Below, in pieces: positions 28,597-36,249 of a DNA stretch of 64,000 nt. The stretch covers positions 1 through 64,000 of the forward strand of contig BK006943.2 of assembly GCA_000146045.2 (NCBI GenBank). Reading direction: 5' to 3'. Within the stretch, counting starts at the first letter, position 1. Each line of letters opens with the position of its first letter. The position numbers were made by a program, and so were the translations under genes. Source of the stretch: TPA_inf: Saccharomyces. Taxonomy: Eukaryota. The notes below the pieces were generated by a model. That model made no database searches. It was not told the DNA's origin and worked only from the letters and a program-made list of their open reading frames with translations.

Positions 28597-31500
28597 ACCG
28601 GTGAAAACACACGCAAGCAAACTTCAAAGTACATTGATAAATAATGTCCAATGCCCTCTGTAATATAGGGGCTTTTTAATTCCTAAGACTGATTCGATAT
28701 ATTAAACACCAGGGCTACTGAAGACTGACAGTCACGTTGAGTCCTATTATATCATTTTACTCACAGAAGATTTGGTAATATGATACTTAGATGGGCTTAA
28801 CAACAAAGTGTTTTCTTGATGTTACTGCCCATGAAAAAAAGCAAATCAAATTAGTAGGCGGATTGTTAACTTTGTTTATTTTGAAACCCGTCAGGACTAC
28901 CAAAATATAACAAAGTATTGATTATCGTCAACGCTTTATAGATCACTTTTTTTTTTTTTTGAGGAACCGATTAATTAATACATCGTAGCCTCTGCTTATT
29001 GCATAACACAACAAAAAAATACAATAATACGCAACTTTTGTTTATAGAAAAATAAAAATGGAACATATGATATTCTCTGTTCGTCATATGATAACTTAAG
29101 CACTTTCGTGTGTACATAGGTATTCTAGTGCATTGGAATGAGATCAATTATGATTTCCTAACCCAGAATTTATATTACTAATGATTTCAGAATTAATAAA
29201 AGCTGAAATAAAAGGAGTAGCAATGTAATAGGAAATAAACGAGGGCACATAGAAAGGAAGAAGAAAAATTACATTATGTGGAATTATTGATTCCCTTGGC
29301 AATTTCCCATAGTCTCATGAAAATTCCTGGCCTATTCTGTATTCATAATTCCATACTCTTTTTTAACAATGAAACTCCGGTAATTACCACAATATTTACT
29401 TATATCTCAATACGAACGCATGTTCTCTTCGAGGAAGACCAGCATTAGCGCTAAGCGCTAAGCGATGAGTTGACTTAATTTTTAAAAGGACGATGTTGGC
29501 GCGTTAGTGCATAAGAAAGTCAGCAAATCCCTTTAAGCTGAAAACCTTGATATATTTCTCGGCCTTTAATAATGGCGCAACTGATTTTAATTATCTTTGA
29601 ATGGCTTATCTGTAACGAACATGTGTTACTAAACTAGTAGTAAGTTAGAAATACTGTTTATCCAGAATATGTAAGTTGGTGCTTCTAAAGTAATATAAGA
29701 CCGCTTTAATTTGTTGTAACCTCTGAAATACAGGTAACCGCTGGGTCATCTCCTATCTAACTTTTGGTAAAAATGACATCGAAAAGAACAATTTTCGAAA
29801 TATTCAATTTGTTCGGGTGTCGGTTTAATGCTCAAGGCCCCAATATTTCATAATAGGATTCTAAGAATTGCAGAAAATTCAGCTATGTTTCACCCATTTT
29901 GTTATTGGTGAAAACCGCCAAATCGATATCGATATAGTCACATTTTAGAGCGTGCCGATAGTCTCTAAACTTACACGAACGTCATTATTTGTAAGTAGAC
30001 AACTGGGAATTTTAAAAAAGGTTGAGAAGATTCGTTTTATAAAATATGACGTCGTAAAAGAAGAAAGTGACAATACTGTTGCTGCGGGTTAAAAAAATAA
30101 TTCTCCTACAAGCTTGAGACCTTTATTACAATTCCTACCTAAATTGGCTCTTCAGGGGGGTTTTCTAGGCAGGTATCTCTAGAATTTACTCAAGAAGTTT
30201 ATTTTCTAGTGCCAAAAAGTCTACTGCTGATATTCGCTTCTACTGATTAAGAGCTGCTTTAAACCATCTTGTTGCAACATTGAGTTTGGACTTAAAGCCT
30301 CAAGTTGTTAGTGATGTTGCTTTTCAGGATGACGTGTAGTTGATCATCTTACAGAAAAGGAAGCAATGGTACGTATAAGATATTATTTTAAATGAGAAGT
30401 AGCTGGTCTTCAAATCACAGACATTGTGATGGCAAAGCAGTGATAAATAAAGTTTTCACACCCAAAGCAACATCTTTCCAAACCGTTTGTGTGCCGTGGT
30501 GAACAGATAGAAGAGGGCACTGTTATTCAAATTTTGAGGGTCGGGAGAATTAACTCGTTAATTATTCCTGGTGTCGAATTTGCGTCATTCCTAAACTTGG
30601 ATATTCTTATATGGCAAAAAAAGAATTTTTTATGCCACCAACACGACGGCATATTCTGGAGTGATTATAGCCACTGCTAACAAGATAAGGCGGTAACACC
30701 CGATTGTGCAGATGTCCTCATTTATCCTGTTTCCGAGCATTTGATTAACCGTCTCTGTGAGACCAGTTAAAGACCTCTCTCAAGAAAAATATGTAAATTT
30801 TTTTCAGCCACTTTATCGGCACTGGAACGAAACGATATGGTATTCCCAGTATCAGCCACGGCCCCGTGTAAGCCGTAAAGTAAACAAAAATTTTTACCAC
30901 TAATTTCGTTGCGTATCAATTTATACTATTCTTTGTGAAAACCTACACAGACTACCAACAGAAATTTTTTTGGTCAAACGAGTCCAGTCTGGTTATTCGC
31001 TGGTTCATGTAAAATGTTAGCACCATCTACAGATTCCGAACATTAAAATCGTATTATGCATAATATAGACATTAATGAGCAATCTGTTCATTACCCCCTT
31101 ATCGTATGGCAACAGCTATTCCTGATGTAATAGTGATGTTATATTGCTTTCGCCATTATTAATTTTGAGGAAGCTTTCCAAACAGATTACATAGCTAACT
31201 AATTGCAATTTTGCGACGCCATAAGGATACGCGATTTCCTCCTTTTCTTTTTCGCGTTGTTCTGTGCGCTCTTTTTTTCAGCCAAAAAGGGTTCCTGAAC
31301 AAAAAGACCCTGTTTTTTTTCTGCCTGTTAACTCTGATCTTAAAAAGTTACCAATTTTCTAACATTTCTCAATAAAGACCCTTCGATAAACAAGATTCTT
31401 GAGAAATAAAAATTTTTGTGACGTTTACTTTTGAAAGTCCTTGAAGAATTCATTACTAATAGAGAAAAAATGGTGATAATTTTTTTACTTCACCTCCTTT

Positions 31501-32162
31501 CTACTATCCCTCTTATTCGGATTATCTAGCTTTAACTTCGCCAGTTTTTTCTTGACACACTTCACAGATGATGGTGCCTTCATGTCGGCATGACGCATTA
31601 TCTCCATACTAAAAAATGATCCGACAATATCTCCTTCCTATTTGATCAGCCTCTTATCGTTCGTAAACGACGTAACTTGACGGAGAACGGAGAACTTGTT
31701 GAATAGAGAAGAGTATGTCGGTAATTGATCTCCGATATGAGCGAATATAAAAGCAACATATTTGCTGGTATGTAGCGTAGCTTTTCTTTCCAATTGACGG
31801 GACATCGAAACAGTATATTAACCGAGATAAAAATGACGACTTATCAAATCGATGTCAATGAAGGAATGAACAAGTCCCTGGCCGACTTGGTGGCACCATA
31901 GCGCCCAGAGCCACTCAAAAATTACTGTATAAGTAACACTAATTTGATAGATGTGGTAAGCGGTGTCAGTCTCCTCGGAGCTTACATCTTCATAGAACAG
32001 GGTGTCATTTCCAAGGTCGAATTTGGTTCTGAAAAGCCGGTAACCGTTGATGAAGTTGCCTTTGAAATTATTGACGGCACCGGTAAGTATGTCACTCCAG
32101 GTCTGATCGACAGTCATGTCCACATTGCGTCGGTTGCAGGAGAGGCTGATCTGACCAAGTTA

Positions 32163-33158
32163 ATGCTGATGCCAAAGTCAGTTGCATTACTCAGAATAAG
32201 ATACACTTTGGAAGCCGCTCTGGCAAGAGGTTTCACAACAGTGAGAGACTGTGGGGGTGCAGAAGGCTTTCTGAAAGCAGAGATTCGTCAGGGATCCTTG
32301 AATGGTCCCAGATTAATTACGTGTGGACATGCCATTTCCCAAACTGGTGGTCATGGCGATCTGAGATCTGGTGCCCTACCTGCTAGTGCCTTTGACAGCT
32401 GTTCATGCCACTTTGGTCAAGTTGGTGTTGTAGCAGATGGTGTTCCCGAATGCTACAAAGCGGCCAGAGAAGAGTTTAGAAGAGGTGCAGACTTTATTAA
32501 GATTATGGGTGGTGGAGGTGTGGCCTCTCCAACTGACAAAATATCAAACAAACAATTTTGCGACGACGAAATAAAAGCACTTGTAGATGTCGCAAATAGT
32601 TACCACACATACGTAACAGCACACGCCTACACTGCGGAAGCGATACAAAATTGTATCAAGTTAGGTGTTAAGGGTATCGAACACGGAAACTTATTAGATG
32701 AACGTACCGCAGAGCTTATGGCAGAATTGGGTTGCTACTTGACTCCAACACTAGTTACCTACAAAGTGATGGGTTCTGATCAATTTAGTGCATTCTTGGG
32801 ACCTGAAAATAGTAGAAAAAATACAGAGGTGCTTTACAAAGGAATTGATGCAATGAAAATTGCCCAGAAAAAAAAAGTTAAAATTTGTTTTGGTTCAGAT
32901 TTATTGGGTCCTCTATATGGTTATCAAACGCAAGAGTTTCGTATTAGAGGGAAAGTTCAAACGACACAAGAGATTTTGCTCTCAGCAACTGTTACTCCTG
33001 CCGAAATGAACGGATTAGGCGATAAATTGGGACAGATTAAGCCAGGGTTCATTGCTGACCTACTGATGATGAAATCAAATCCGTTGGACGATATAACGAT
33101 TTTGGATGAACCCGAGAGCAACATACTATTTGTCATGAAAGAGGGAAGGATATATTGA
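32163..33158 (+). CDS. YJL213W: Metal-dependent amidohydrolase-superfamily protein, 331 aa from the first in-frame ATG. The open frame continues upstream to 31902.
   Basis: First ATG at 32163 (MLMPKSV...). Downstream motifs are typical of amidohydrolases (HAYT, GIEHG, ...). The frame is open upstream through 31902 and there encodes the N-terminal beta-sandwich and HxH metal-binding motif (GLIDSHVHI) without an ATG. Confidence 0.8.
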
Positions 33159-33849: not shown

Positions 33850-36249
33850 TTACCACCATTTATCATAACCAAATGTCTCACCTTTCTTTAAGGTATAAAA
33901 TTTTTTATAATCATTATCATACGTTCTTTTCCAAACGTTGTTTCCCCACCAGCTGAGCTTACCACCTGGGTACTGTACACACAAGAAGATGATGACGACG
34001 GAGATTGCCACACCTGCTTCAACACCGGCCCCCATGACGAAATTGTACTTATTGAACCAAGCTCTCCATCTTTTTCTTATCAAGTTTAGGCAGAATGACA
34101 TTGCAAAAAATAATGAGTAGTTATAAGGTGTGCTTGGTGGAATATTACCTGGGCCTGTGAAAAATACAGGAGTATGAATGTGCTTAGCAAATTTAAATTT
34201 AGGGAATTTCCATTGAACAGCATAAACGGCTAGTGGGAATAGCAAACCAATCAAGAAGAACCACATCAGCGGATTATAAATGCGCCCTGATGAGAAAAGA
34301 TACTTTGGCAAAGACCAGATAATGGAAGCATTGAAAACCGTGCGACCATTAGCACAAGTGAAGCCATTTGGTTGATCGGTGGTACATAAGCCATCGATAT
34401 TATGCATCATCCATTCCTGGACACCAACGTTAACCATGCCTGATATGATAGTGGCATAGATTTGAACGGCAAAGATCAAACGAGGGGAAACCTTCATGTA
34501 CATGGCTAATTTCAAATCTCTACTCAAATTCAAGCCTTGTCTCATGACAATAAATCCGTATAGCTTGAATAATAAGTTTGCCATTGGTCTTAAAGGCAGC
34601 ATATAACCGCAGATCAATTCTGTGATAATATTCAAACCTACGTGTTGGTTAGTCATTGCTTCCAAGATACCTTGCGGGATGAAATTTACAAGGGAAATTA
34701 ATATTGCAATAACAAATGCCCAAGCTGGGAACTTAGTATCGAAACAGCACACTGCTACAAATCCTAAACCGATCATGACAATCTGCAAAAGTAAATACCA
34801 CCAATCGGGACAATCCTTATAGTTCTTGGAGTAGATTCTCATGTGAATGTCAGTGCCACCATTTTTACGGTCTTTAAACTTGGCGACAATATCTTTACCG
34901 TGGTATAAGATGCAGTGGACAAAAACGGCGATAACAGCGGCAAAATTTAAAGCATACGACAAAAGATAGGAAAATGGAACGAATACCGGTGAGTATTCCT
35001 TATATTTCTCAAGATTAATGGAATAATCCTCGTTAAGAATCTTTGTTACGTTGTATTTGTTTTGAGTGTTGTCATAAGTAGAACCTGAAATGACGGGCAT
35101 GTATTTGGCATACCAGGTATTCGTAAAATAAAGACATGGCAGCACTATGACGAAGAATATCAACACTGATGCATAGGTGTTGGCGGAGACGTAGAATGGT
35201 GTGGCGAAAACAGAGCCGGACATGGCTTGGGAAACCTGGGTGTAGTCAAATGTAATTGGCAACGCACCGAGACCACTTTGAGTACCAAAGATTGTGTTAG
35301 CGATGAAATTGTGTCTTGTCTTCGACCCCCATAGGATAACGTTGAAATAGGACAGACCGGTAAAGAGGAATCCAGGTACCCAATACCAGATGAACGATCC
35401 GATAAGGACGATTAAGAAGAACCTGTAACGGGGCATCGTCCAACCATTTGCGACTGTCTTTTCAACTTTTCTCGAGTGCAACGAATCAAACAAGGACACT
35501 GAAATTAAAGTCTGAGGCCAGATAGAGCTTGCAGGGTTGACGACCCATCTTCTGGTAAGACCTGCAGCACCATAACCAATCATTTGAGATGTCCAAACCA
35601 ACAAGAACTGATATCCGACATTAAGTTTCATGTTGTAAAAGCTTCCCTGGGCGTTCAAAATGTACATAGCGTATGCAGTAGAGGAAGTAAGCGCCACGGC
35701 AATTGTGACCACGGCGTGTTCCTTTTTGGTAAATGGGCCCGGGTTTAAATCGAAAAATGGCACTTTAGAACACTTCCAGTCGGGCAAGAGAGCCAGTATC
35801 CTACCAATTGGGTAGCAAACAACTTGTGCAACAAGGAAGTTGATCTCTAGCGATGGATATCTCAGGGAAAAAAATTGATTAACACCGGCGAAAACTACCA
35901 CAAACACCGTGGTCAAGAACCACGTTCTCCAGTGGTTGAGGCGGATGGTGGGGTCATCCTCGATGGACACCGCCGATCTCACTTCAGGATATGGAGAATT
36001 GGGCAAGTATGTAGGGTCGCCCTTCCAAACGAGACCTTCCTCCTGTATGGAATGCCTGTCGAATTTTTGGCTTTCCGGATCGCGGTCCTCCTCATCAGTA
36101 GTCGCAGTGAGATTATTGACGTCCTCGTCAATATTCTTAACGAAAGCATCTTTCTTTTCCTCTTCCATATTGATCTGGATAGGAATGGTTGTTGGCGTTG
36201 GCGAGGGCTCCGACTCCAACGAGTCGCTCTCCCTATAAATGGTACTCAT
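33850..36249 (-). CDS. OPT1: Oligopeptide transporter, OPT family (glutathione/peptide uptake), 799 aa
   Basis: 799-aa polytopic membrane protein with ATG verified. OPT-family architecture with a hydrophilic N-terminus followed by about 15 TM segments. Position and length match OPT1. Confidence 0.88.
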   Translation of the reverse strand: MSTIYRESDSLESEPSPTPTTIPIQINMEEEKKDAFVKNIDEDVNNLTATTDEEDRDPESQKFDRHSIQEEGLVWKGDPTYLPNSPYPEVRSAVSIEDDPTIRLNHWRTWFLTTVFVVVFAGVNQFFSLRYPSLEINFLVAQVVCYPIGRILALLPDWKCSKVPFFDLNPGPFTKKEHAVVTIAVALTSSTAYAMYILNAQGSFYNMKLNVGYQFLLVWTSQMIGYGAAGLTRRWVVNPASSIWPQTLISVSLFDSLHSRKVEKTVANGWTMPRYRFFLIVLIGSFIWYWVPGFLFTGLSYFNVILWGSKTRHNFIANTIFGTQSGLGALPITFDYTQVSQAMSGSVFATPFYVSANTYASVLIFFVIVLPCLYFTNTWYAKYMPVISGSTYDNTQNKYNVTKILNEDYSINLEKYKEYSPVFVPFSYLLSYALNFAAVIAVFVHCILYHGKDIVAKFKDRKNGGTDIHMRIYSKNYKDCPDWWYLLLQIVMIGLGFVAVCCFDTKFPAWAFVIAILISLVNFIPQGILEAMTNQHVGLNIITELICGYMLPLRPMANLLFKLYGFIVMRQGLNLSRDLKLAMYMKVSPRLIFAVQIYATIISGMVNVGVQEWMMHNIDGLCTTDQPNGFTCANGRTVFNASIIWSLPKYLFSSGRIYNPLMWFFLIGLLFPLAVYAVQWKFPKFKFAKHIHTPVFFTGPGNIPPSTPYNYSLFFAMSFCLNLIRKRWRAWFNKYNFVMGAGVEAGVAISVVIIFLCVQYPGGKLSWWGNNVWKRTYDNDYKKFYTLKKGETFGYDKWW

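Follow-up and report, generated by a model that had tools for sequence, protein, structure and literature searches.

A premature TAG codon as the very probable cause of a disabled, 441-residue amidohydrolase gene at YJL213W of Saccharomyces cerevisiae S288C

The open reading frame (ORF) YJL213W of Saccharomyces cerevisiae S288C lies on chromosome X, within the stretch of 64,000 nucleotides analysed here (positions 1 to 64,000 of the forward strand of contig BK006943.2, assembly GCA_000146045.2; hereafter the window), and its annotated product of 331 residues starts inside an amidohydrolase domain, which raises the question of what became of the front of the enzyme. A preliminary description of the window, made from the letters alone, had claimed that an ATG at 31833 opens a frame that is cut by a single TAG at 31899-31901 and is otherwise a continuous 441-codon frame to 33158, and direct reading of the DNA confirmed this arrangement in full. 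From the evidence assembled below, YJL213W in S288C is very probably a naturally occurring allele, null or severely hypomorphic, of a conserved 441-residue amidohydrolase with a binuclear metal site. The elements on which the argument turns are listed in window coordinates.

31746..31753, plus strand: TATA box TATAAAAG, a match to the consensus about 85 bp 5' of the start codon.
31833..31835, plus strand: ancestral start codon of the 441-residue amidohydrolase, in the good context ataaaaATGa.
31833..31898, plus strand: codons 1-22 (MTTYQIDVNEGMNKSLADLVAP), in S288C a short ORF of 22 codons, by direct reading.
31899..31901, plus strand: premature TAG at codon 23 (W23*), derived from an ancestral TGG by G to A at 31900.
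31902..32162, plus strand: codons 24-110, a disabled coding remnant with the beta-sandwich strands and barrel strand beta-1, recognised by Pfam, PDB, AlphaFold2 and the ratio of nonsynonymous to synonymous substitution rates (dN/dS).
31951..32154, plus strand: four out-of-frame ATGs (31951, 32050, 32089 and 32116) with ORFs of 2-18 codons, before 32163.
32115..32123, plus strand: HxH metal-binding motif, His-95-Val-His-97, 5' of the annotated start.
32163..33158, plus strand: annotated YJL213W ORF of 331 residues, equivalent to ancestral codons 111-441, with the weak start context aagttaATGc.

Past the TAG, a single open frame was read up to the TGA ending at 33158, so that 31833-33158 spans 1326 nt, or 441 codons (the TAG counted) and the terminator. 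The complete list of in-frame ATGs comprises those at 31833 and 31866, 5' of the TAG, and those at 32163 and 32169, 3' of it; the annotated 331-residue ORF is thus simply the longest remnant that can be initiated from an ATG. Its translation is identical to NP_012322.1 (YJL213W, S288C chromosome X), and it keeps K223 (32499), H264 (32622), H284 (32682) and D356 (32898) in the numbering of the 441-residue protein.

The disabled segment was compared with domain profiles, solved structures and a structural model. The 441-residue conceptual protein covers positions 1-344 of the 345 in the Pfam Amidohydro_1 profile (PF01979) with an expect value (E) of 4e-46 and 158 bits against a cut-off of 25, in line with the search proposed in the preliminary description, while the 331-residue ORF, which also passes the cut-off, covers only positions 29-344 (E=5e-38, 131.6 bits). 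The PDB entries 3mkv (E=1e-92) and 3feq (2e-89) align from conceptual residue 32-34 to the C-terminal end, pairing the conceptual DSHVHI with DLHVHV and DCHVHV, respectively. When the 87-residue segment encoded by 31902-32162 was searched alone, it matched the N-termini of 16 amidohydrolase-superfamily structures, with a best E of 1.5e-5. The claim that a beta-sandwich and an HxH motif are encoded upstream in the same frame is therefore upheld by the Pfam coverage, the PDB alignments and the search with the 87-residue segment. The intact allele, modelled by AlphaFold2 with 105 homologs, reached a mean predicted local distance difference test score (pLDDT) of 92 and a predicted template modelling score of 0.91; the model places the beta-sandwich strands at residues 31-40, 45-55, 58-64, 78-81 and 86-89 and barrel strand beta-1 at 91-96, ending in H95/H97, all before Met-111, and residues 11-30, with a helix at 16-20, are modelled at a pLDDT of about 91-92. 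The best Foldseek matches of the model were 3feq, 3n2c and 3mkv, with template modelling scores (TM, normalised to the target) of 0.92-0.94. Judged by these sequence and model comparisons, the frame upstream of 32163 is genuine coding homology and not a chance occurrence.

The same alignments specify what the annotated product would lack. Six residues, H95, H97, K223, H264, H284 and D356, are present in the intact and the conceptual protein, invariant in the 105 homologs, and match the subtype-I set of binuclear ligands, namely HxH with Asp, two His and a bridging carboxylated Lys, as described for the ochratoxinase of Aspergillus niger, AnOTA (PMC11342369); the ligand roles were taken from that study and from PMC10699109, and are assigned to the yeast residues by likeness to AnOTA. 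Both H95 and H97, together with the strands between residues 31 and 96, lie between the TAG and Met-111, and the HxH motif and barrel strand 1 are accordingly absent from the 331-residue product, which agrees with the earlier claim that two metal ligands would be missing.

The question of which form of the gene is ancestral was addressed through its orthologs. A protein search returned a 441-residue S. cerevisiae protein, 99% identical, in a cluster of 265 member sequences, and orthologs of 441-452 residues were found in S. mikatae, S. kudriavzevii, S. uvarum, Lachancea and Zygosaccharomyces, as well as in more distant fungi. Intact orthologs read ...DLVAPW-RP..., the PW being retained as far as Pachysolen and Schizosaccharomyces, and the 105 fungal homologs conserve both P22 and W23 to at least 90%. 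At the position of the TAG, TGG stands in the DNA of a S. paradoxus-like allele, S. mikatae, S. kudriavzevii and S. uvarum; the preliminary description had suggested looking for a sense codon in other strains and sensu stricto orthologs, and TGG was found both in intact strains and in these four outgroup species or alleles. Between TGG and TAG alleles of S. cerevisiae the DNA flanks are identical and the codon alone differs, so that one G-to-A transition at 31900 accounts for the stop.

Between sensu stricto species, dN/dS amounts to 0.07-0.13 over codons 1-110 and 0.04-0.07 over codons 111-441, and the leader (codons 1-22) gives 0.09-0.25 in most species pairs. The ATG at 31833 is kept in all six aligned sequences, namely those of S288C, an intact S. 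cerevisiae allele, S. mikatae, S. kudriavzevii, S. uvarum and the paradoxus-like allele; in this alignment, indel-free, codon-like conservation begins exactly at this ATG, from which intact alleles give 441 residues. The TATA element is kept too, in a conserved block, GAATATAAAAGC, with flanking DNA that diverges with indels, and probably acts as the core promoter for the full-length gene. The dN/dS values, the conserved ATG and the TGG codon in relatives together indicate that the ancestral gene was a colinear 441-codon ORF from 31833 and that the TAG is derived. Orthologs that begin at the internal methionine with no conserved coding potential upstream had been named beforehand as the finding that would speak against such a reading, and the opposite was found. 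S. kudriavzevii carries an extra in-frame upstream ATG (L024:1501-1533) and a 452-residue model with 11 additional residues, which may reflect an annotator's choice of the longest ORF, since the counterpart of the 31833 ATG occurs there as well.

Codon 23 was read in 26 loci, labelled L001-L026, and is TGG in L001-L004, L008-L014 and L022-L025. The following alleles were distinguished within S. cerevisiae.

TGG with an uninterrupted 441 codons: L001-L004 and L011, and also L022, the paradoxus-like introgressed allele of strain JAY291.
TAG: L006, L007, L015-L021 and L026, all of the S288C-like haplotype, from several sequencing projects and including natural isolates.
TGG with a 1-bp deletion (delta-A) at 32042 and a stop at codon 91: L008-L010 and L012-L014, of the other haplotype.
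TAC (Tyr): L005 only, of the S288C-like haplotype.

The TAG was seen in at least 10 independently assembled genomes, plus further identical places, and many 441-residue S. cerevisiae protein entries exist besides the intact loci. Apart from the nonsense codon, the S288C-like haplotype differs from intact alleles by P48L, I58V and A378T (31975, 32004 and 32964) and by three synonymous changes, a pattern that would suit a disabled haplotype under relaxed constraint, the counts being too small to test. The intact allele of L022 (JAY291, a bioethanol strain, contig ACFL01000301.1) is 88% identical to S288C and is uninterrupted from the upstream ATG, while being annotated with 331 residues; it agrees with the S. 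paradoxus-derived introgression of OPT1 and YJL213W that has been published for Brazilian strains.

Other lesions have accumulated at the locus. Delta-A removes one A of GTAACC and shifts the frame on the TGG haplotype, independently of the TAG; its presence in Illumina-era, recent long-read panel and Logan assemblies makes a sequencing artefact unlikely. The gene of the delta-A strains is still annotated as an intact 331-residue YJL213W, transferred from S288C. On the TAG haplotype, strain CLL (L026) carries a second nonsense mutation, C to T at 32418, which turns CAA into TAA (Q196*), and the annotation of Kyokai-7 is split into 'a' and 'b' pieces in a manner that fits Q196*, K7_Yjl213wb (P0133) beginning with MGGGG past codon 196; Q196* on a TAG allele indicates continued decay of an already disabled haplotype. 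Conversely, the single assembly of L005 (GCA_000978015.2; L005:1237-1239) has TAC at the position of the stop and an uninterrupted 441-codon ORF, with 2 differences from S288C in 1326 nt, and would most simply represent a sense-restoring mutation from TAG to TAC at the conserved Trp-23. Neither its exact 441-residue Y23 product nor a W23 product of the S288C haplotype was otherwise present in the protein collection. Within the ORF, there is also a homopolymer of nine A at 32868-32876 (..CAG AAA AAA AAA GTT..), at which the long-read model P0127 (320 residues) ends with ...KKKS, either as a real frameshift allele or as an error of homopolymer length in the assembly. On the DNA of these loci, the TAG is a segregating natural allele that coexists with intact, frameshift, double-nonsense and TAC alleles, a mixture in keeping with selection that is relaxed, or depends on the environment, at a gene bordering the subtelomere. 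The lone TAC allele and the three independent lesions at a single locus are the most unusual detail of the case.

How the S288C allele would behave can be outlined from these elements. The first AUG 3' of the conserved TATA box is that at 31833, which has a strong context and opens the 22-codon ORF, and the AUG at 32163 has a weak context with T at -3. Transcription most likely still begins 3' of the TATA box, and ribosomes would start at 31833, make a peptide of 22 residues and terminate at the TAG. Few ribosomes would be expected to get to 32163, a weak-context AUG standing behind four out-of-frame AUGs with a presumed inhibitory effect, and little 331-residue product should be made as a result of these two features. 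Whatever is made would be without the five beta-sandwich strands, barrel strand beta-1 and both HxH ligands of the alpha-metal site, for which reason it should be catalytically dead and is probably misfolded.

Published ribosome profiling of a BY/RM hybrid bears on this outline. YJL213W showed a log2 translation efficiency (BY/RM) of -3.41 (p=9e-10), with footprints at -2.15 (log2) though mRNA stood at +1.26 (PMC4207643, Table 2), and was placed among 23 strong cis effects "without disrupting gene structure", for which the authors gave no explanation (PMC4207643). The approximately 10-fold lower translation efficiency of the BY allele agrees with W23*, which is a candidate cause on the supposition that RM11-1a carries a gene intact at 31900 and 32042; a lesion outside the annotated ORF would explain its having been missed in that study. 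Several points weigh against a null or severely hypomorphic allele. The tie to the profiling asymmetry is itself an inference that presumes an intact allele in RM11-1a, and the mRNA of BY is not below that of RM, so that no signature of nonsense-mediated decay is visible. The stop sits in a comparatively leaky context, UAG with C at +4 and A at +9, such that trace amounts of full-length protein may be made (PMC8087045, Table 2). Furthermore, the deletion mutant in BY was a negative genetic interactor in one screen, which is unexpected for a fully dead gene, a single genetic-screen match being weak evidence.

Could the TAG allele be useful as it stands? The preliminary description had left two options, a nonsense-truncated or a readthrough-dependent version of a longer enzyme. 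Programmed, functional or [PSI+]-conditional readthrough, with Gln, Tyr or Lys inserted at position 23, draws some support from the context CCA-UAG-CGC-CCA, which has the most permissive base (C) at +4 and a permissive A at +9, UAG being intermediate among stops (PMC8087045, Table 2). The rest of the S288C ORF is, moreover, uninterrupted, with every catalytic residue present. A TAC (Tyr) allele exists on the TAG haplotype, and tyrosine is among the residues put in by near-cognate decoding of UAG. Readthrough is nonetheless very unlikely. The stop is derived, with a sense codon in all orthologs; the flanking context is the same in TGG alleles and was thus inherited rather than selected for readthrough; and the CARYYA motif is matched at only 4/6 positions by direct reading. 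The second nonsense mutation on the TAG haplotype in sake-type strains and the frameshift on the other haplotype form the pattern of a dispensable gene, these further disabling mutations showing that many lineages can do without it, and translation efficiency over the ORF in BY is some 10-fold below that in RM. Of the two options, the nonsense-truncated version is hence the one that stood, by virtue of the intact 441-residue TGG alleles in strains and sister species, while the readthrough-dependent version did not, given a derived and polymorphic stop, an inherited context, independent lesions and the low translation in BY. A related proposal is that of shifting selection in place of simple decay, whereby the TAG is kept at appreciable frequency since loss of the enzyme, or a trace of readthrough responsive to [PSI+] or termination efficiency, pays in some niches and the TAC of L005 is a selected intragenic reversion that brings the enzyme back with Tyr at position 23; this is unlikely too, and if true, YJL213W would be a natural reversible inactivation by way of a single codon, beside the peptide transporter gene OPT1.

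A protein made from the ATG at 32163 might alternatively have a function of its own, neofunctionalised and non-catalytic, for example in association with ribosomes. Database descriptions cited in papers state that YJL213W "may interact with ribosomes" and list it as an in-vitro substrate of Dbf2-Mob1, a negative genetic interaction of yjl213w-delta with hrq1-deltaN is listed for a BY-background collection, and some footprints remain on the BY allele. Such a fragment would, however, be without barrel strand beta-1, five sandwich strands and two metal ligands, which renders stable folding doubtful; its ATG has a poor context and follows five ATGs in the likely mRNA; selection across species acts on the full 441-residue form; and the cited proteomic detection came from the wild killer strain M437 and not from S288C. 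The array and affinity data on YJL213W reportedly came from over-expressed tagged ORFs, which also counts against this explanation, and a functional fragment is highly improbable overall. A sequencing or assembly error in the reference was considered in view of the single-base errors once common in the 1996 sequence; no support for it was found, and the same TAG in at least 10 independent assemblies from different projects rules it out.

The removal of the stop by a spliceosomal intron, as implied by GenBank models of TAG strains, deserves to be weighed with the DNA at hand, the claimed splice site being the following.

31768..31773, plus strand: GTATGT, the claimed 5' splice site of automated models, judged an annotation artefact.

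Two annotation pipelines made such models: in one type, MSEYKSNIFA, starting from an ATG at 31737, is joined to DVVSG... across the GTATGT at 31768 (P0123, P0126 and P0005), and in the other, MTTYQIDVNEGMN is joined to NGVSLL... (P0124). S288C does possess the GTATGT at 31768 and a branch-like TATTAAC at 31816, and a CAG at 31906-31908 would splice in frame with the ATG at 31737 and this GTATGT. The GTATGT is nevertheless specific to S. cerevisiae, and S. mikatae, S. kudriavzevii, S. uvarum and the paradoxus-like allele all lack it; a canonical TACTAAC is missing, the non-canonical TATTAAC being the sole site resembling a branch point. Both models remove conserved and confidently folded residues, including strand 31-40, the two pipelines contradict each other, and TGG strains encode a colinear 441-residue protein for which no intron is needed. 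An intron in YJL213W was consequently rejected, its splice signals not being conserved, and can be given hardly any credence at all. Among the automated models, P0123, P0124, P0126, P0005, P0007, P0017 and P0127 contain introns that are invented, or internal deletions, and so bypass the TAG, Q196* or other lesions; such GenBank models are likely artefacts that seed wrong proteins into the nr database.

The interrupted gene of S288C can be placed within a known enzyme family. The product of the intact gene is a fungal member of the cog1228/MEROPS M38 branch of the amidohydrolase superfamily, in which the enzymes characterised so far are Xaa-Pro and Xaa-Arg/Lys dipeptidases, N-acyl-amino-acid hydrolases and ochratoxinases. 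Its closest relatives of known structure, Sgx9260b/c (3mkv, 3feq/3n2c; Xaa-Pro dipeptidases, 'prolidases') and Cc2672 (3mtw; an Xaa-Arg/Lys carboxypeptidase), share 40-43% identity over the whole 441 residues at TM 0.92-0.94, the architecture of a beta-sandwich with a (beta/alpha)8 barrel, identical positions of the HxH, Lys, His, His and Asp ligands, and identical positions of the conserved His-174 and Tyr-266. Unlike these bacterial enzymes, the fungal proteins carry about 30 additional, conserved leader residues (..DLVxPW..), confidently modelled and including Trp-23, and the S288C allele carries an interruption. Against the NCBIfam Xaa-Pro dipeptidase equivalog NF051886, the intact YJL213W protein scores 225 bits, below the cut-off of 500, and can therefore be called a homolog but not a prolidase. 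AnOTA (4c5y) and the bacterial ochratoxin-A amidohydrolases (ADH3, 8ihq) belong to the same superfamily branch (E 1e-38 to 1e-46), AnOTA likewise being fungal, with a binuclear Zn site, a carboxylated Lys and an N-terminal segment ahead of the catalytic core, but their identity to the YJL213W conceptual protein is only 27-29%. AnOTA also stays active after its N-terminal 42 residues are processed off, whereas the truncation in S288C takes 110 residues including the HxH motif.

As an event, W23* has parallels in the reference strain. Like NIT1 (YIL164C/YIL165C, a single ORF in RM) and YFL051C (whose S288c allele is a truncated flocculin), YJL213W has a stop in the reference that breaks a gene continuous in other isolates, an event of a kind that has been detected by strain comparison and allele-specific translation. 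In contrast to these two, the disabled part of YJL213W lies 5' of the annotated ORF and is unannotated, and the gene passes as an ordinary 'verified/uncharacterised' ORF. Yeast readthrough genes, such as the BSC genes and PDE2, share with it an in-frame stop between two coding stretches and a C at +4, but the stop of YJL213W is polymorphic rather than conserved, and cuts a conserved domain near the N-terminus instead of preceding a C-terminal extension.

The neighbourhood of the locus was inspected on both sides. The convergent neighbour downstream is the following.

33850..36249, minus strand: OPT1/YJL212C, an oligopeptide transporter of 799 residues with an OPT Pfam domain.

An OPT Pfam domain is found on the neighbour at all related loci, including those of S. 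mikatae, S. kudriavzevii and S. uvarum, and one may speculate that this adjacency reflects a link to peptide utilisation. Upstream, the unusually long gap from HXT8 to the start of YJL213W, 28597-31832 (3.2 kb), holds no ORF of at least 70 residues and no tRNA, and can be aligned to the flanks in sister species only over the proximal 300-800 bp or so; a gene relic in this gap was considered and rejected, the similarity to the sister flanks being that of decaying promoter DNA only. The upstream neighbour in S. uvarum is not HXT8, a short-chain dehydrogenase gene ending about 1.4 kb 5' of the ortholog there. An antisense ORF of 101 codons, initiated by GTG, covers the disabled N-terminal region on the minus strand (31818-32123), but stems from a mechanical listing by bacterial start rules and is no evidence for a gene.

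The truncation of YJL213W is not mentioned in the searchable full-text papers that name the gene, nor in the supplements of Albert 2014, Doniger 2008 and Bergstrom 2014. Full-length models for other strains are already in GenBank, and the information is in this sense implicit in public data. A recent preprint on the core gene set lists YJL213W, without comment, as the leftmost core gene of chromosome X in 93/93 strains, and describes analogous truncated S288c alleles, YFL051C among them. W23* thus appears to be an ordinary kind of event for the reference strain that, for YJL213W, went unflagged.

The annotation should be corrected, as the ORF called "YJL213W" in the reference is the tail of a broken gene, and yet it is this 331-residue ORF that deletion collections, ORFeome clones, protein arrays and interaction screens have relied on for two decades. 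Data obtained with the 331-residue construct, such as ribosome association and phosphorylation by Dbf2-Mob1, probably say little on the native enzyme. W23* offers a simple candidate cause for one strong cis effect on translation among the 23 left unexplained between BY and RM, and exposes faulty GenBank models of other strains with invented introns. The native product is a 441-residue amidohydrolase conserved across Ascomycota, whose gene adjoins that of the oligopeptide/glutathione transporter OPT1, and a TGG strain is the place to study it. With three independent disabling events and one sense-restoring change, the locus constitutes a natural experiment on gene loss at the boundary between the core and the subtelomere.

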